A stretch of 47,736 nucleotides of DNA from a virus (taxonomy: Duplodnaviria; Heunggongvirae; Uroviricota; Caudoviricetes): the IMG/VR virus record IMGVR_UViG_2778261460_000004; one strand, 5' to 3'. Positions 39,069 through 47,736 of this stretch are shown here, piece by piece. The notes under the pieces are model-generated. The model ran no database searches, was not told the DNA's origin, and saw nothing but the letters and a program-made list of their open reading frames with translations. Positions within the stretch are counted from its first letter, which is position 1. Each line of letters begins with the position of its first letter. Both the position numbers and the translations under genes were made by a program.

Positions 39069-42000
39069 ATGGGTAAAGGCAGCAGTAAGGGGCATACTCC
39101 GCGCGAAGCGAAGGACAACCTGAAGTCCACGCAGTTGCTGAGTGTGATCGATGCCATCAGCGAAGGGCCGGTTGAAGGTCCGGTGGATGGATTAAAAAGC
39201 GTGCTGCTGAACAGTACGCCGGTGCTGGACAGTGAGGGGAATACCAATATATCCGGCGTCACGGTGGTGTTCCGGGCCGGTGAGCAGGAGCAGACACCGC
39301 CGGAGGGATTTGAATCCTCCGGCTCCGAGACGGTGCTCGGTACAGAAGTGAAATATGACACGCCGATCACCCGGACCATCACGTCGGCAAACATTGACCG
39401 TCTGCGTTTTACTTTCGGCGTGCAGGCACTGGTGGAAACCACCTCAAAGGGGGACAGGAATCCATCGGAAGTCCGCCTGCTGGTTCAGATCCAGCGTAAT
39501 GGTGGCTGGGTGACGGAAAAAGACATCACCATTAAGGGCAAAACCACCTCGCAGTATCTGGCCTCGGTGGTGGTGGGTAACCTGCCGCCGCGCCCGTTCA
39601 ATATCCGGATGCGCAGGATGACGCCGGACAGCACCACAGACCAGCTGCAGAACAAAACGCTCTGGTCGTCATACACCGAAATCATCGATGTGAAACAGGG
39701 CTACCCGAACACGGCACTGGTCGGCGTGCAGGTGGATTCGGAGCAGTTCGGCAGCCAGCAGGTGAGCCGTAATTATCATCTGCGCGGGCGCATTCTGCAG
39801 GTGCCGTCGAACTATAACCCGCAGACGCGGCAATACAGCGGTATCTGGGACGGAACGTTTAAACCGGCATACAGCAACAACATGGCCTGGTGTATGTGGG
39901 ATATGCTGACCCATCCGCGCTACGGCATGGGGAAACGTCTTGGTGCAGCGGATGTAGATAAATGGGCGCTGTATGTCATCGGCCAGTACTGCGACCAGTC
40001 GGTGCCGGACGGCTTTGGCGGCACGGAGCCGCGCATCACCTGTAATGCGTACCTGACCACACAGCGCAAGGCGTGGGATGTGCTCAGTGATTTCTGCTCG
40101 GCGATGCGCTGTATGCCGGTATGGAACGGGCAGACGCTGACGTTCGTGCAGGACCGACCATCAGATAAGGTGTGGACCTATAACCGCAGTAATGTGGTGA
40201 TGCCGGATGATGGCGCGCCGTTCCGCTACAGCTTCAGCGCCCTGAAGGACCGCCATAATGCCGTTGAGGTGAACTGGATTGACCCGAACAACGGCTGGGA
40301 GACGGCGACAGAGCTTGTTGAAGATACGCAGGCCATTGCCCGTTACGGTCGTAACGTCACGAAGATGGATGCCTTTGGCTGTACCAGCCGGGGGCAGGCG
40401 CACCGCGCCGGGCTGTGGCTGATTAAAACGGAACTGCTGGAAACGCAGACCGTGGACTTCAGCGTGGGTGCGGAAGGGCTTCGCCATGTACCGGGGGATG
40501 TCATTGAAATCTGCGATGATGACTATGCGGGTATCAGCATCGGCGGGCGCGTGCTGGCGGTGAACAGCCAGACCCGGACGCTGACGCTCGACCGTGAAAT
40601 CACGCTGCCATCCTCCGGTACCACGCTGATAAGCCTGGTTGACGGAAGTGGCAATCCGGTCAGCGTGGAGGTTCAGTCCGTCACCGACGGCGTGAAGGTG
40701 AAAGTGAGCCGTGTTCCTGACGGCGTTGCCGGATACAGCGTGTGGGGGCTGAAGCTGCCGACGCTGCGCCAGCGCCTGTTCCGCTGTGTGAGTATCCGTG
40801 AGAACGACGACGGCACGTATGCCATCACTGCCGTGCAGCATGTGCCGGAAAAAGAGGCCATCGTGGATAACGGAGCGCACTTTGACGGCGACCAGAGCGG
40901 CACGGTGAATGGTGTCACGCCGCCAGCGGTGCAGCACCTGACCGCAGAAGTCACCGCAGACAGTGGGGAGTATCAGGTGCTGGCGCGCTGGGACACGCCG
41001 AAGGTGGTGAAGGGTGTGAGCTTTATGCTTCGCCTGACCGTGGCCGCCGATGACGGCAGTGAGCGGCTGGTCAGCACGGCCCGGACGACGGAAACCACTT
41101 ACCGCTTCACACAACTGGCGCTGGGGAACTACAGGCTGACAGTCCGGGCGGTAAATGCATGGGGACAGCAGGGCGATCCGGCGTCGGTATCGTTCCGGAT
41201 CGCCGCACCGGCAGCGCCGTCGCGGATTGAGCTGACGCCGGGCTATTTTCAGATAACCGCCACGCCGCATCTTGCCGTTTATGATCCGACGGTACAGTTT
41301 GAGTTCTGGTTCTCGGAAAAGCGGATTGCGGATATCAGGCAGGTTGAAACCACAGCCCGCTATCTTGGTACGGGGCTGTACTGGATAGCTGCCAGTATCA
41401 ATATCAAACCGGGCCATGATTATTACTTTTATATCCGCAGTGTGAACACCGTTGGCAAATCGGCATTCGTGGAGGCCGTCGGTCGGGCGAGCGATGATGC
41501 GGAAGGTTACCTGGATTTTTTCAAAGGCAAGATAACCGAATCCCATCTCGGCAAGGAGCTGCTGGAAAAAGTCGACCTGACGGAAGATAACGCCAGCAGA
41601 CTGGATCAGTTTTCGAAAGAGTGGAAAGACGCCAACGATAAATGGAATGCCATGTGGGGCGTCAAAATTGAGCAGACCGAAGACGGTAAGCATTATGTCG
41701 CGGGACTTGGCCTCAGCATGGAGGACACGGAGGAAGGCAAACTGAGCCAGTTCCTGGTTGCCGCTAACCGTATCGCGTTTATTGATCCGTCTAATGGCAA
41801 CACAAGACCAATGTTTGTTGGTCAGGGCGATCAGATATTCATGAACGACGTGTTCCTGAAACGCCTGACGGCTCCGACCATTACCAGCGGCGGTAATCCT
41901 CCGGCATTTTCCCTGACACCGGACGGGCGGCTGACGGCGAAAAATGCCGATATCAGCGGTAACGTGAATGCGAACTCCGGGACGCTCAACAACGTCACGA

Positions 42001-42461
42001 TTAATGAGAGCTGTACTATTAAGGGGATGCTTGATGCTAACCAGGTGCGTGGTGATTTTGTAAAAACGACAGGGCATCGATTTCCGCACCCCGGAGAATA
42101 CCCACAGGGTTCACTTACCGTTCATATTAAGGACGATCATGCCTTTGACAGGCAGATTATAATTCAACCAATCATGTACGGTGCACCACCATATTTTAGT
42201 AAAAATGATGGCGCTAATATCTACGATACCTGCAGATTAATTGTGCGCAAAAATGGCAATGTAATCTATGACAAATCCACTAGTGGTTCGAAAAGGACAA
42301 CAGTCGTGTACAGCAATATCATTGATATGCCAGTGGGGGACGGAGATGTAATATTAACATTTGAAGTTCAGTCGAGCGGCAGTGGAGAGCCCAGAACATG
42401 GATCAGTGATTTAATGGTCTCGGTAACGAAAAAAGCCGCATCCGGTATCAGTATCAGTTGA
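39069..42461 (+). CDS. J: Central tail fibre / host specificity protein J
   Basis: 1130 aa, lambda gpJ-like for about the first 990 aa; C-terminal about 140 aa (receptor-binding region) differs from my recollection of lambda J. Confidence 0.9.
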
Positions 42462-42530
42462 AATTTTTATAACCCCAATACGGGCGCCAGAAATGGCGCC
42501 TTTTTTATTGCAGAAAAGCGAGAGGTAATT

Positions 42531-43130
42531 ATGCGTAAAGTTTGTGCAGCCATTTTGTCCGCAGCCATCTGTCTGGCCGTATCCGGTGCGCCTGCATGGG
42601 CGTCTGAACATCAGTCCACACTGAGCGCAGGGTATCTTCATGCCCGTACGAACGCTCCCGGCAGCGATAATCTGAACGGGATTAACGTGAAATACCGTTA
42701 TGAGTTTACGGACACGCTGGGGCTGATTACGTCCTTCAGTTATGCCAATGCTGAGGATGAGCAAAAAACGCACTACAGCGATACCCGCTGGCATGAAGAT
42801 TCCGTGCGTAACCGCTGGTTCAGCGTGATGGCAGGGCCGTCTGTGCGCGTGAATGAATGGTTCAGCGCGTATGCGATGGCGGGTATGGCTTACAGCCGTG
42901 TGTCGACCTTCTCCGGGGATTATCTCCGCATAACTGACAACAAGGGGAAAACGCACGATGTGCTGACCGGAAGTGATGACGGTCGCCACAGCAACACGTC
43001 TCTGGCGTGGGGAGCTGGCGTGCAGTTTAACCCGACCGAATCCGTGGCCATTGATATTGCTTATGAAGGCTCCGGCAGTGGTGACTGGCGCACTGCCGGT
43101 TTCATCGTGGGTGTCGGTTATAAGTTCTGA
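42531..43130 (+). CDS. lom: Outer membrane protein Lom (Ail/Lom family)
   Basis: 199 aa with signal peptide and beta-barrel pattern ending ...GFIVGVGYKF. Confidence 0.85.
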   Translation: MRKVCAAILSAAICLAVSGAPAWASEHQSTLSAGYLHARTNAPGSDNLNGINVKYRYEFTDTLGLITSFSYANAEDEQKTHYSDTRWHEDSVRNRWFSVMAGPSVRVNEWFSAYAMAGMAYSRVSTFSGDYLRITDNKGKTHDVLTGSDDGRHSNTSLAWGAGVQFNPTESVAIDIAYEGSGSGDWRTAGFIVGVGYKF

Positions 43131-43194: not shown

Positions 43195-45660
43195 ATGGCA
43201 GTACGGATTTCAGGTGTACTGAAAGATGGCGCAGGTAAGCCGATACAAAACTGCACCATTCAGCTAAAGGCCAGGCGCAACAGCACCACGGTGGTGGTGA
43301 ACACAGTGGCCTCAGAAAACCCGGATGAAGCCGGGCGTTACAGCATGGACGTTGAGTACGGTCAGTACAGCGTTATTCTGTTGGTGGAAGGATTCCCGCC
43401 GTCACATGCCGGGATCATCACCGTGTATGAAGATTCCCAACCCGGTACGCTGAATGATTTTCTCGGTGCCATGACGGAGGATGATGCCCGTCCTGAGGCA
43501 CTGCGCCGTTTTGAACTGATGGTGGAAGAGGTGGCGCGTAACGCGTCCGCAGTGGCACAGAACACGGCAGCCGCGAAGAAGTCAGCCAGCGATGCCAGCA
43601 CATCAGCCCGTGAGGCGGCAACCCATGCGACTGATGCTGCAGACTCAGCACGCGCAGCCAGAACGTCAGCCGGACAGGCCGCGACGTCGGCTCAGGAGGC
43701 TTTTTCCAGCGCAGGAACGGCATCAGCAAAGGCCACTGAAGCATCAAAAAGTGCTGCCGCAGCAGAGTCCTCAAAAAGCGCGGCGGCCACCAGTGCCGGT
43801 GCCGCGAAAACGTCAGAAACGAATGCTGCAGCGTCACAACAATCAGCAGCCACTTCTGCATCCACCGCGACTACGAAAGCGACAGAAGCTGCCACCTCAG
43901 CCCGGGATGCGTCGGCTTCAAAAGAGGCGGCAAAATCATCAGAAACGAACGCATCCTCGAGCGCCAGTAGTGCAGCCTCCTCGGCAACGGCGGCAGGAAA
44001 TTCCGCGAAGGCTGCAAAAACGTCCGAGACGAACGCTAAGTCTTCTGAAACGGCAGCGGAACAGAGTGCCTCCGCAGCAGCAGACTCAAAAACAGCGGCT
44101 GCATCATCTGCCAGTGCCGCGTCAACAAGTGCCGCGCAGGCATCAGCCAGTGCCACCGCCGCCGGAAAATCGGCAGAAAGTGCTGCATCATCCGCTTCAA
44201 CAGCCACAACGAATGCTGGCGAAGCCACTGAGCAGGCCACGGCAGCAGCGAGGTCTGCTTCCGCAGCGAAGACATCCGAGACGAACGCGAAAGCGTCGGA
44301 AACCCGTGCAGAATCCTCAAAAACGGCAGCGGCATCGTCCGCCAGTTCGGCGGCGTCATCGGCATCATCGGCATCTGCTTCAAAAGATGAGGCGACCAGA
44401 CAGGCGTCAGCAGCGAAGGGCAGCGCCACGACGGCATCCACGAAGGCGACAGAGGCAGCTGGCAGTGCGACAACTGCATCCCGGAGTAAAAGTGCGGCTG
44501 AATCAGCTGCAACCCGCGCGGAAGCTGCGGCTACACGGGCAGAGGATATAGCCTCTGCTGTGGCTCTTGAAGATGCGAGCACGACAAAAAAGGGAGTTGT
44601 AAAGCTCAGTAATAGTACTGACAGCACGTCACAAACAGAGGCAGCAACACCCCTGGCCGTCAAAAACGTAATGGATGCACTGAATGAAGTTTCATCTGCC
44701 ATTGGGGATGATCCGCAATTTGCGACAACAGTAATGAATGCGCTGGCAGGAAAGCAACCATTAAACGACATACTGTCATCATTGGCCGCCCTGGTTACAA
44801 CCGGGAACAAACTGGCCTATTTCAGCAGTAAAAATGTCATGTCGCTGGCGGATTTTTCAGCAACTGGTCGTTCGCTGATTAGCTGCGGTACAGAGTAAGA
44901 GGTTCTGGATTATCTGGGAATAAAAAGCACCGCCACACTGGAGGTACAGAAAGATATTTTCGACCGGGCTGATGGTGTACTGGCTTTGCCTGGTGCATTC
45001 GGATTTGGGGCATTAACTTCTGTGACGCAGTATTTTAGTGCCGGTAATGGGCCGTCAGAGTTTGCAGCCTGGTGTGTGCAGACCCCCCCTGGGCGGTATC
45101 GTGTGGAACAACGTTCAGGTTCGGATATTAATCCCATTATCCCGGATATTGTTTTTACCGGAATACTGGAAATCAAAGTCCCGGACAGAGTATCCGACCC
45201 GGATGATCATAAGAGAAAAGGAAAGCTGCTGACCTTTTACGGTCAGTATGGCGATGTGTATAAGACCATGCTTAAGCCAGGTTCTACCACCCCATCACTG
45301 GAAACCTGGAAGAATGGTTATATGAACAAAAGCGGACTTGCCGGGTTGCTAGGAAATGATACTGCTGAACCAGAAACTGGCAGTCTTATTCTGGCGGCGT
45401 ATTACGGGACATCAGACAGTGATAACAGTAGAACACTGCAGAGAGGAGCAATTTATCCGGGATCACGACTGGCACACGTAGAGTTGGCAGCTGATGCGGC
45501 CATCGGTGCAGGTGTTAAAGGTACTGCTCCTGTCTGCTATGTGCGAGGGTTATCATTTTCACACTCGCTACCGGGAGCATACAGATCGCTATCTGGCTCA
45601 CAAGGGGCGAGAGTTGACAGCAGCAAGGCTATTGTTGGAATGTTTGTCCGTATCGGGTGA
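43195..45660 (+). pseudogene. stf: Side tail fibre gene stf interrupted by an in-frame TAA (44896-44898); N-terminal ORF 43195-44898 (567 aa), C-terminal remainder 44899-45660 open in the same frame
   Basis: No other stop codon in frame for 254 codons after the TAA; downstream part lacks an ATG/SD (track start is TTG); N-terminal part is an Ala/Ser/Thr-rich repeat shaft. Confidence 0.6.
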
Positions 45661-45666
45661 TAGAAG

Positions 45667-46233
45667 ATGAAAATAAAAGATATAAAAAACCCTCAAAGTC
45701 TGGAAAGTGGGGCGATAGATTGTGAGGTATTATTTTTCAGCATGGACGAATATTTGCCTTATACAGCGACACAGGAAGACACAACCAGGACTGGCCGGCA
45801 AATCTGGCAGGAACTGCAAAGCGGCAAATGGGGCAAAATCGCCCCGTTCACCATCACGCCGGAACTTATTACGGCAGCGAAGGATGCCAAAAAGCGGGAA
45901 ATCGAGGCCTGGCGTGCAGAACAGGAGGCGAAGCCGTTCACGTTCGAATGGAACGGTCGCACCTGGAACGGTGGCCCCGACTCGATGGCGCGATTGTATC
46001 CGGCGGTGATGGCATCGAAGTCTGATACAGCACGTGACGTTACGGTGTGGGGCGATGCTGATAATCAGCAGGTGAAACTGTCGATGCCGGAACTGGAAGA
46101 GCTGGCGGCAGCAATGGCGCTGACACAGGTCGAGCGCAATGACGAGATTTATCGTCGTCAGCGTGAGATGAAGGAAGAACTGAATAATCTTGATGATTTA
46201 CGCTCAATCCGAGCGTTTGACGTTACGCAATAA
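45667..46233 (+). CDS. tfa: Tail fibre assembly protein Tfa
   Basis: 188 aa; typical Tfa position and size immediately after stf. Confidence 0.8.
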   Translation: MKIKDIKNPQSLESGAIDCEVLFFSMDEYLPYTATQEDTTRTGRQIWQELQSGKWGKIAPFTITPELITAAKDAKKREIEAWRAEQEAKPFTFEWNGRTWNGGPDSMARLYPAVMASKSDTARDVTVWGDADNQQVKLSMPELEELAAAMALTQVERNDEIYRRQREMKEELNNLDDLRSIRAFDVTQ

Positions 46234-46452: not shown

Positions 46453-47736
46453 ATGGATTTCCAGTTATATTCGCTCGGCGCAGCGTTAGTGTTTCATGAA
46501 ATATTTTTTCCTGAATCATCAACGGCAATGGCGTTAATTTTGGCAATGGGAACCTACGGTGCAGGTTATGTGGCGCGTATTGTCGGAGCATTTATTTTCG
46601 GCAAAATGGGCGACAGAATAGGGCGTAAAAAAGTGCTCTTTATTACCATCACCATGATGGGGATCTGTACCACCTTAATTGGTGTGTTACCGACCTATGC
46701 ACAGATTGGTGTTTTTGCCCCCATCTTGCTGGTGACGCTGCGTATTATTCAGGGGTTGGGTGCAGGTGCGGAAATTTCCGGTGCCGGTACGATGCTGGCG
46801 GAATATGCACCAAAAGGTAAGCGCGGAATTATCTCCTCATTTGTAGCTATGGGAACTAACTGCGGAACCTTGAGCGCAACGGCAATCTGGGCCTTTATGT
46901 TCTTCATTCTCAGTAAAGAGGAACTGCTGGCGTGGGGATGGCGTATACCGTTCCTGGCGAGCGTTGTCGTGATGGTCTTTGCTATCTGGTTACGTATGAA
47001 TCTGAAAGAAAGCCCGGTCTTTGAGAAGGTTAATGACAGCAACCAACCCACAGCAAAACCTGCACCTGCTGGTAGCATGTTCCAGAGCAAATCCTTCTGG
47101 CTGGCAACAGGGCTGCGTTTTGGTCAGGCGGGTAACTCCGGGTTAATTCAGACTTTCCTTGCAGGCTATTTAGTGCAGACGTTATTGTTTAACAAAGCAA
47201 TTCCAACAGATGCATTGATGATTAGTTCGATTCTCGGCTTTATGACCATTCCGTTCCTTGGTTGGTTATCCGATAAAATTGGTCGCCGGATCCCGTATAT
47301 TATTATGAATACCTCCGCGATTGTGCTGGCATGGCCAATGCTTTCTATCATTGTAGATAAAAGCTATGCCCCGAGCACCATTATGGTTGCACTGATTGTG
47401 ATTCATAACTGTGCGGTGCTGGGATTATTTGCTCTGGAAAACATTACCATGGCAGAAATGTTCGGCTGTAAAAACCGCTTTACCCGGATGGCTATTTCTA
47501 AAGAAATTGGTGGTCTTATCGCTTCCGGTTTTGGTCCTATCCTGGCGGGTATTTTCTGCACCATGACGGAATCCTGGTATCCGATCGCCATTATGATCAT
47601 GGCATATTCAGTGATTGGTTTAATCTCTGCGCTGAAAATGCCAGAGGTGAAAGACCGTGATTTAAGTGCGCTGGAAGACGCTGCGGAAGATCAACCGCGT
47701 GTTGTAAGAGCTGCGCAACCTTCCAGAAGTCTGTAA
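46453..47736 (+). CDS. ydfJ: MFS transporter YdfJ (metabolite:H+ symporter family), 5'-truncated by prophage insertion
   Basis: 427 aa with GKMGDRIGRKK loop motif; begins inside the first TM helices of a normal MFS protein; matches recalled K-12 YdfJ, which is annotated as interrupted by Qin. Confidence 0.8.
   Translation: MDFQLYSLGAALVFHEIFFPESSTAMALILAMGTYGAGYVARIVGAFIFGKMGDRIGRKKVLFITITMMGICTTLIGVLPTYAQIGVFAPILLVTLRIIQGLGAGAEISGAGTMLAEYAPKGKRGIISSFVAMGTNCGTLSATAIWAFMFFILSKEELLAWGWRIPFLASVVVMVFAIWLRMNLKESPVFEKVNDSNQPTAKPAPAGSMFQSKSFWLATGLRFGQAGNSGLIQTFLAGYLVQTLLFNKAIPTDALMISSILGFMTIPFLGWLSDKIGRRIPYIIMNTSAIVLAWPMLSIIVDKSYAPSTIMVALIVIHNCAVLGLFALENITMAEMFGCKNRFTRMAISKEIGGLIASGFGPILAGIFCTMTESWYPIAIMIMAYSVIGLISALKMPEVKDRDLSALEDAAEDQPRVVRAAQPSRSL

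Follow-up and report, generated by a model that had tools for sequence, protein, structure and literature searches.

The window, the whole 47,736-nucleotide stretch of viral DNA analyzed here (IMG/VR record IMGVR_UViG_2778261460_000004), carries a lambda-type J gene in which the receptor-binding domain (RBD) has probably been replaced by a rare allele of the same family, giving a fiber tip that would most probably target a trimeric porin, with a specificity unlike that of lambda. The features of the J region are as follows.

39069..42461, + strand: gene J, central tail fiber/tip attachment protein, 1130 aa, intact (ORF list)
39069..42023, + strand: lambda-like J body, aa 1 to 985, 96.4% amino acid identity to lambda gpJ, GC content 57.9%
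42024..42458, + strand: divergent RBD, aa 986 to 1130, with the Ig-like Ig_GpJ_C fold, a rare allele (identity, Pfam, AF2/Foldseek, and GC content)
42066..42422, + strand: allele-specific DNA core, encoding approximately aa 1000 to 1118, including the putative contact loops L1 to L4 (blastn)
42462..42530, + strand: spacer between J and lom, containing a terminator-like hairpin (42482-42501, with a T-run; terminator scan)

The J protein and its C-terminal domain

Profile, architecture, and position all place this protein in the lambda J family. It scored 2269.5 bits against NCBIfam lambda_TipJ (NF049904; cut-off, 1950) over aa 1 to 1130, and its Pfam domains (FNIII-A_GpJ, Phage-tail_3, Ig_J, Ig_J_second, Phage_Tail_Tip, and Ig_GpJ_C, in that order) are placed just as they are in lambda gpJ. 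The tail genes H-M-L-K-I precede the gene, and lom and stf follow it, an ORF order that agrees with those of lambda and strain Santai. The exact protein is already public, under a generic name, as NCBI WP_097312384.1. Lambda gpJ itself (NP_040600/P03749; structures 8iyk, 8xck, and 8xcj), which binds LamB, has 1132 aa, compared with 1130 here, and the same Pfam architecture.

The initial annotation had described J as collinear with lambda gpJ for most of its length and had suspected that the C-terminal end differed. Both points held up on alignment. BLASTP against lambda gpJ (NC_001416) gave an overall identity of 89%. The body, which comprises hub domains, FNIII domains, the alpha-helical shaft, and the central straight fiber, accounts for the highly identical aa 1 to 985 and is the conserved signal transduction machinery. 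Segment alignment to lambda gpJ gave 40.1% identity with four indels for aa 986 to 1130. Thus, the C terminus is not lambda-like, and the boundary previously placed at DANQVRGDF (aa 989) is a few residues from the measured one at aa 985/986.

The end of J nevertheless matched PF12421 (Ig_GpJ_C) at aa 1010 to 1130 (E = 1e-30; 107 bits versus a gathering score of 26.2). Because homology to the lambda RBD is retained, this end is a divergent RBD and not an unrelated domain. An AF2 model of the RBD contained eight strands with a moderate pLDDT of 69, low in loop L2. The top four Foldseek matches of the model were 9wca, 9wcb, 8xck, and 8xcj (E of ∼1e-14; TMq of 0.64 to 0.67), the first two being structures of A8 gpJ, bound to OmpC or alone, and the last two those of lambda gpJ, bound to LamB or alone. 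A sequence search of the PDB returned A8 gpJ at E = 6e-42. These matches confirmed, for the predicted structure, the Ig-like beta-sandwich fold of the solved gpJ RBDs.

Four putative receptor-contact loops were assigned: L1 (aa 1004 to 1013), L2 (aa 1040 to 1053), L3 (aa 1073 to 1076), and L4 (aa 1104 to 1114). They were assigned to the distal face by the order of the strands in the AF2 model, not by coordinates. Relative to all other RBD types, identity was 20 to 30% in these loops and 47 to 60% in the scaffold, and the top-loop motifs DDHxFDRQ, KNG, IDMPxGxG, and KKxxxGISI were conserved. The lambda RBD has the same Ig_GpJ_C family, strand order, and top-loop motifs but is only 39% identical in the core and 22% in the loops, with indels in all four loops and DNA that cannot be aligned past ∼42031; the window RBD is therefore not a lambda-type (LamB-specific) allele. 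The indels fall at lambda positions ∼1011-14, 1045, 1070 (as placed by the aligner), and 1102-04. These positions match or neighbor the four hotspots of natural indels (1012, 1048-49, 1077-78, and 1107) in what has been called the "specificity region" of J (residues 960 to 1132) (PMC6646904). Residues 1012 and 1107 are needed for the switch of lambda to OmpF (PMC6646904).

Among the characterized J types, lambda uses LamB, whereas 434, A8, 1A2, and phi330 use OmpC. The window RBD belongs to none of the characterized OmpC clusters (defined at ≥70% identity), with a core identity of 41 to 44% to each. Of the solved structures, the OmpC-binding A8 gpJ (9wca/9wcb) is the best match in both sequence and structure (Foldseek E = 7e-15, with 51% identity over the aligned model). 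A8 has an L1 of equal length and the C-terminal "...KK..AGISIS" in common with the window RBD but differs in the lengths of L2, L3, and L4; its core is 44% identical, and its contact loops are 27% identical. It occurs naturally in Stx1a/Stx2a-converting phages and in PhiR70_1 (Brodel et al. 2024, PMC11338833); a panel of 23 OmpC variants was used in that study.

The OmpC-binding J of 434, whose RBD is of the mEp460 type (96%), agrees with the window J in the linker CTIKGML(D/E)A(N/T)QVRGDFVK as well as in a motif at the C terminus; its core is 44% identical, and its L1 and L2 loops are much longer. With 1A2 gpJ, an O157-type allele that binds OmpC(EDL933), the window RBD has in common the scaffold and the beta4 motif CRLIVRKNG (7/8 residues), with 41% core and 20% loop identity. 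The possibility that the allele is the tail of a published A8 or 1A2 chimera was rejected: the reconstructed 1A2 tail was only 41 to 45% identical, and three 12- to 18-nt strings from the window were absent from the 1A2 and A8 DNA in the supplement of PMC11338833. The DNA in that supplement contains machine-reading errors, and the 1A2 reconstruction was validated at 100% identity by two database proteins (P0043 and P0046).

The RBD cassette and its distribution

The RBD has a GC content of 43.5%, compared with 57.9% for the rest of J and 55.6% for the lambda RBD. DNA identity to lambda falls from 0.84 to 0.90 to 0.56 or less between ∼41950 and ∼42040, and this break in composition and identity far exceeds chance variation. 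In blastn comparisons with lambda, 434, A8-type, phage 21, and mEp460 sequences, similarity ended at ∼42031 to 42068 and resumed at ∼42402 to 42428; the DNA core had no nucleotide similarity to other RBD types that blastn could detect. Across 50,697 phage records, with the distant mode included, ∼24% of a 1,501-nt query was unmatched. The junction blocks at the cassette edges, on the other hand, are common to other RBD types. Homologous recombination at these conserved junctions would have exchanged the C-terminal Ig-like RBD for the rare allele, with the 434/mEp460 type as a plausible partner because its flanking DNA junctions are 83 to 91% identical to those of the window.

Comparison of loci carrying the allele shows that the RBD cassette, ∼0.5 kb in length, is transferred separately from the remainder of J. 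The segment from 42021 to 42530 was 99.3 to 100% identical at the nucleotide level in seven prophage contigs, in which the flanks were 87 to 96% identical, and the same RBD sits on a J backbone of 1158 aa in O157:H16 Santai. The J-lom intergenic segment was 100% identical in 7/7 IMG/VR loci with the allele and travels with the cassette. Although the backbones have diverged, the RBD retains 98.6 to 100% nucleotide identity across 24 genomes and 7 viral contigs, which points to recent and successful horizontal spread.

The allele is rare. Of 5426 complete E. coli genomes, 24 carried it; none of the 50,697 phage records did. It did not turn up in the GTDB species-representative genomes, so that nothing places it in hosts other than E. 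coli. Strains with the prophage include avian and human ones. Among 1.84 billion representative proteins, 95 matches were obtained, none above 57% identity, and therefore no closer donor lineage was found. The sole sequence more than 70% identical to the RBD (P0001) is the same allele. The closest nonidentical relative, an unnamed protein from Logan run SRR30896110 (P0002), is 54 to 56% identical. Like the window allele, P0002 has a low-GC RBD; unlike the window J, it is a distant, non-lambda J-like fiber on a contig of 40.5% GC with a T4-like uvsW gene, and its contact loops are only 26% identical.

Receptor specificity

Receptor specificity is likely to be unlike that of lambda, because the four predicted contact loops all differ and each contains an indel. 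Of the earlier proposal of a different receptor and host range, altered specificity is the part that most likely stands, given the replacement of four loops with indels at receptor-controlling positions; the sequence neither names the receptor nor proves that it is other than LamB. Assignment of the receptor by homology was rejected. The allele is about equidistant (39 to 44% core identity) from lambda, the LamB binder, and from the OmpC binders 434, A8, and 1A2, and homology gives no discrimination because the OmpC binders are as far from one another (38 to 56% identity among the three proven OmpC-binding types) as from the window allele. The RBDs of phi330 (OmpC), 434 (OmpC), and lambda (LamB) have been reported to be 35 to 40% identical pairwise.

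By analogy with every characterized member of the domain family, the receptor is most probably a trimeric porin. OmpC is the single most likely candidate, and naming it is a guess that falls somewhat short of probable; another porin such as OmpF is unlikely, a non-porin less likely again, and LamB comes last. On the preferred reading, three RBD copies would form the fiber tip as in the lambda and A8 structures, and the four distal loops, by their presumed role, would insert into the outer-membrane protein. Binding would spread the loops, and this movement would be relayed via the conserved "top" of the domain. The signal may then pass through the near-lambda-identical fiber, shaft, and hub and trigger opening of the tail.

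An outer-membrane protein other than a porin (FhuA, BtuB, OmpX, TolC, etc.) is an improbable target of the RBD. Its loops are unlike those of any characterized allele, which leaves some room for a novel target, and J proteins of this class may also contact non-porins, since Gifsy-1 J was reported to bind BtuB and OmpX besides OmpC (PMC12312913). FhuA and BtuB, whose users among the lambdoid phages the initial annotation had put forward for comparison, are unlikely receptors. In the FhuA-dependent phages HK022 and N15, J ends after Phage_Tail_Tip without a PF12421 domain, and cor and small genes come next. In the window, by contrast, J carries PF12421 and lom comes next, with no cor, the opposite of the HK022/N15/phi80 type of FhuA module. 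In addition, the solved lambda and A8 complexes pair a three-fold-symmetric RBD trimer with a trimeric porin.

Slightly less probable still is continued use of LamB, perhaps of another LamB variant or in another binding mode, in which case host range would not be fundamentally changed. The conserved fold and scaffold are consistent with this possibility, and very different RBDs can share a receptor, as the OmpC types do. Against it, the four loops are as different from those of lambda as described above, with indels at or near sites where point changes alter receptor use, and all characterized non-lambda alleles use OmpC. The LamB-type RBD is, moreover, also rare, occurring in 98 of 5426 E. 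coli genomes (including laboratory strains such as K-12 C3026, B C3029, and C43(DE3)), compared with ∼1800 to 2100 for the OmpC types (∼1800 for the A8 type).

A further reading that we consider doubtful is that the RBD recognizes an outer-membrane protein or porin variant new as a lambda-like receptor and may be a recent import from low-GC virulent phages, a pool suggested by the setting of its nearest relative, P0002, on the low-GC contig with T4-like uvsW. If so, lambda-based delivery vectors would gain a new module for receptor retargeting, and the passage of an RBD from a virulent to a temperate lineage of phages would be documented.

Host range in lambda-like phages is set primarily by the C-terminal domain of J, which is also the part exchanged to retarget lambda-derived DNA delivery particles; in the chimeras built for in-gut base editing (A8 and 1A2), the fusion point was lambda J residue 964. 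A natural allele with wholly different loops is thus a candidate for retargeting and for mapping loop sequence to porin choice. Biologically, the exchange is unsurprising, since a description of the natural diversity, recombination, and indel hotspots of the region dates from 2018, and the probable tip swap here is an ordinary case of the well-documented change of host specificity in lambda-like phages. The window J illustrates cleanly the mobility of the RBD cassette apart from the rest of J.

lom, stf, and the downstream gene

Three genes follow J.

42531..43130, + strand: lom, Ail/Lom outer-membrane beta-barrel, 199 aa (PF06316, E = 1e-126)
43195..45660, + strand: stf, side tail fiber gene, one frame with a single in-frame TAA (44896-44898), truncated 567-aa product (translation)
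45667..46233, + strand: tail fiber assembly/tail fiber family gene, 188 aa (phrog_1141 "tail fiber protein," E = 4e-84; DUF4376)

J, lom, and a broken stf had been proposed to make up the adsorption apparatus together. The single TAA codon bears out the broken stf; lom does not belong in this group, being a lysogen-expressed Ail/Lom protein with no part in virion adsorption. A linked, co-varying module of lom and RBD was considered and rejected: lom identity ranged from 87 to 98% among loci with the same RBD, and the window lom is ∼90% identical to the lom of many phages with other RBD types. The divergence from lambda runs on through lom because the lom of lambda is itself unusual.

The stf product has phage_tail_N at aa 1 to 134, and its C-terminal part matches the C terminus of the tail fiber family phrog_2636. 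The stf of strain Santai is intact. Because the stf nonsense codon indicates some decay of the prophage, function of this copy of J is not guaranteed. It is, however, very unlikely that the allele has been left to decay in a cryptic prophage and has lost its role in adsorption: the premature stop lies in the same operon and the allele is rare, but the J ORF is full-length and intact, the RBD is highly conserved across the genomes and contigs with diverged backbones, the scaffold and top-loop motifs are intact, and laboratory lambda, whose stf is broken (orf-401/orf-314), is fully infective. The gene at 45667..46233 is placed like tfa of lambda and of strain Santai.

Divergence and homology of the J C terminus

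The C-terminal receptor-binding domain (RBD) of the window J protein is a new, rare member of the swappable Ig-like RBDs of lambda-type J. Its interest is practical, as a candidate module for retargeting; conceptually, it holds no surprise.

39069..42461, plus strand: J, an ORF of 1130 aa

J was compared with gpJ of phage lambda (NC_001416; 1132 aa). Protein alignment gave 89% identity over the full length, and segment alignment resolved a body (aa 1 to 985; 96.4% identity) and a tail (aa 986 to 1130; 40.1% identity and four indels). DNA identity to lambda was 0.9 to 1.0 over most of the gene, 0.74 at 41949-42038, and ≤0.56 from ∼41994 on, and GC content, 57.9% in the J body, was only 43.5% over the final 441 bp. 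These results confirmed that J is lambda-like for most of its length with a tail unlike that of lambda, as the initial annotation had proposed, and its boundary at DANQVRGDF (aa 989) agreed with the segment identities, the DNA identity, and the GC shift. The tail matched Pfam PF12421 (Ig_GpJ_C, "C-terminal receptor binding domain") at aa 1010 to 1130 (E = 1e-30) and is thus still homologous to that of lambda. Window J and lambda gpJ have a six-domain architecture in common, the whole protein scored above the NCBIfam lambda_TipJ cutoff, and NCBI already lists an identical protein as WP_097312384.1 ("host specificity protein J"). J has a further mosaic patch of smaller size at 41566-41871 (aa ∼833 to 935; helical shaft/start of the straight fiber), where four of seven related prophage contigs lacked any alignment, yet were alignable on both sides.

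Identity of the window allele over the RBD core and occurrence of RBD types in complete E. coli genomes (n = 5426)
lambda (LamB-binding): 39%; 98/5426, a count that takes in laboratory strains
A8 (OmpC-binding): 44%; ∼1800/5426
434 (OmpC-binding): 44%; ∼2100/5426
1A2 (binds OmpC of EDL933): 41%
phage 21: 44%
P0002 (protein from Logan run SRR30896110; nearest relative): 50%
window allele: 24/5426

Stx1a-converting phages and PhiR70_1 have an RBD identical to the A8 sequence of PDB 9wca. The 1A2 sequence was rebuilt from error-ridden supplement text and confirmed at 100% identity by database proteins P0043 and P0046.

Rarity and exchange of the RBD cassette

The allele (aa 986 to 1130) was found in 24 of the 5426 genomes, at 98.6 to 99.8% nucleotide identity, and in seven IMG/VR prophage contigs. 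It was absent from 50,697 phage records, where the last 160 aa had no match closer than 51.5% and ∼360 nt of the query went unmatched even by sensitive blastn, and it was not found in any GTDB species-representative genome. Among 1.84 billion representative proteins, only 95 matches were obtained, none above 57% identity; clustering these with the matches of the first search gave five named types plus ∼14 sequences less than 70% identical to any reference. The allele is thus among the minor, uncharacterized branches of a family that is small and well known.

Across the seven viral contigs, 42021-42530 (the RBD and the intergenic region with a terminator hairpin) was 99.3 to 100% identical to the window, while the adjoining 150 nt of J were only 88 to 92% identical. 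The remaining J was 89 to 98% identical where alignable (one 300-nt stretch was unalignable in four loci), lom 87 to 98%, and stf 75 to 94%. Strain O157:H16 Santai has this RBD as part of a J of 1158 aa. Nucleotide similarity to other RBD types ended at ∼42031-42068 and returned at ∼42402-42428, which defines an allele-specific core of ∼350 nt. The core is bracketed by junction blocks common to RBD types: an upstream linker (GTLNNVTIN...GDFVK) and a downstream block of a 10-residue motif plus the terminator. This anatomy would be expected from exchange by homologous recombination, and the published finding that the phylogeny of the specificity region differs from that of the rest of J (PMC6646904) agrees with cassette exchange.

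The RBD GC content was 43.5% in the window, 47.2% in the A8 type, and 47.8% in the 434/mEp460 type, compared with 57 to 58% in the remaining J and 55.6% in lambda's own RBD. The low GC content of the non-lambda RBDs relative to the J body suggests a foreign, lower-GC source pool. P0002, the nearest nonidentical relative (54 to 56% identity to the window RBD), ends a frameshifted, distant J-like fiber gene on Logan contig SRR30896110_547 (L009:1-994; 40.5% GC). On the same contig lie HNH/endonuclease genes, an M15 endolysin, and a uvsW helicase with 81% nucleotide identity to T4-like (Phi1/RB49-group) phages, a hint that RBDs of the lambda type are also in circulation among low-GC phages, probably virulent ones.

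Among genome matches H41 to H65, 15 of the 24 carriers were avian isolates (chicken, turkey, duck, "poultry"), nine of which came from a single series (Z1323CEC); for a tenth record of that series, the match was confined to the shared last 40 nt. In strain SM107, the chromosome and a 111-kb plasmid (NZ_CP130669.1) each carried the allele, which may indicate a phage-plasmid or a prophage duplication.

RBD fold and candidate receptors

A PDB sequence search ranked A8 gpJ (9wca/9wcb; E = 6e-42) above lambda gpJ (8xcj/8iyk; E ∼1e-29). An AlphaFold2 model of aa 961 to 1130 (pLDDT 69) had eight strands, and its top four Foldseek matches were A8 gpJ, closed and OmpC bound, and lambda gpJ, closed and LamB bound. 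The lambda RBD is an Ig-like domain whose four "bottom" loops, L1 to L4, enter the LamB trimer; on binding, the loops spread, the domain top is drawn inwards, and the straight fiber twists, after which the helical shaft flips, the FNIII strings are released, and the hub opens (PMC11101478).

Putative receptor-contact loops of window J, placed by strand order (topology) of the AlphaFold2 model, not by coordinates
L1: aa 1004-1013
L2: aa 1040-1053
L3: aa 1073-1076
L4: aa 1104-1114

These loops were 20 to 30% identical to those of every other allele and differed in length, compared with 47 to 60% identity for the RBD outside them, and the alternating "top" motifs DDHxFDRQ, KNG, IDMPxGxG, and KKxxxGISI were conserved across alleles. 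Within a specificity region defined as 960 to 1132, Maddamsetti et al. reported four indel hotspots (1012, 1048-49, 1077-78, and 1107) among 1207 natural J homologs, and changes at residues 1012 and 1107 were universally required for lambda's gain of OmpF use (PMC6646904). The four indels relative to lambda (∼1011-14, 1045, 1070, and 1102-04, as placed by the aligner) coincide with or fall near these hotspots. Together, loop divergence, conserved top motifs, and indel positions suggest that the receptor-touching part of J was exchanged and the signal-relay part (scaffold top plus aa 1 to 985) retained.

Phage 434 is a classical OmpC-dependent lambdoid. Its receptor has been reported as OmpC (PMC12502783), and since the mEp460-type RBD was 96% identical to that of 434, this abundant prophage type (∼2100/5426 E. 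coli genomes) can be read as OmpC specific. The three OmpC-binding types were only 38 to 56% identical to each other, and the RBDs of phi330, 434, and lambda share 35 to 40% (PMC12502783); percent identity thus cannot assign a receptor. The proposal of a receptor different from that of lambda was partly supported: the divergent RBD and its loops favor it, while identity values do not name the receptor.

All members of the domain family characterized so far bind a trimeric porin, and every characterized non-lambda allele uses OmpC. The J proteins of HK022 and N15, which are FhuA-dependent lambdoids, end after Phage_Tail_Tip without Ig_GpJ_C and are followed by cor, whereas window J has Ig_GpJ_C and is followed by lom, with no cor. 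By analogy, a trimeric porin of some kind is probably the receptor. OmpC itself is a tentative assignment, just short of probable; another porin such as OmpF is unlikely. A nonporin target, kept as a candidate because Gifsy-1 J was reported to bind BtuB and OmpX besides OmpC (PMC12312913), is decidedly unlikely, and LamB is, if anything, more doubtful.

Genes downstream of J

42531..43130: lom, a typical Ail/Lom beta-barrel
43195..45660: stf, a single 821-codon reading frame with one in-frame TAA at 44896-44898
46453-47736: MFS metabolite/H+ symporter ORF (TIGR00883, just above cutoff), directly after the tail-fiber genes

The divergent block seemed to continue into lom, which had only ∼50% nucleotide identity to lambda lom over most of its length. 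Window lom was ∼90% identical to its counterparts in cdtI, Stx2a_WGPS6, mEp460, and many more phages with other RBDs; lom is thus unlinked to the RBD, and the apparent extension reflects lambda's own outlier lom. Lom is not a virion adsorption protein, and its proposed place in the adsorption apparatus was not upheld. The "broken stf" is real: the stop (...SCGTE*EVLDYLG...) interrupts an otherwise single frame whose downstream part still matches a tail-fiber C terminus, which makes this a recent nonsense mutation rather than a deletion or frameshift. Particles, if the prophage makes any, would rely on J alone, as laboratory lambda does. The symporter ORF continues past the right end of the window; the profile alignment indicates that it may miss its first few residues, and on that ground it may be a host gene at the prophage boundary.
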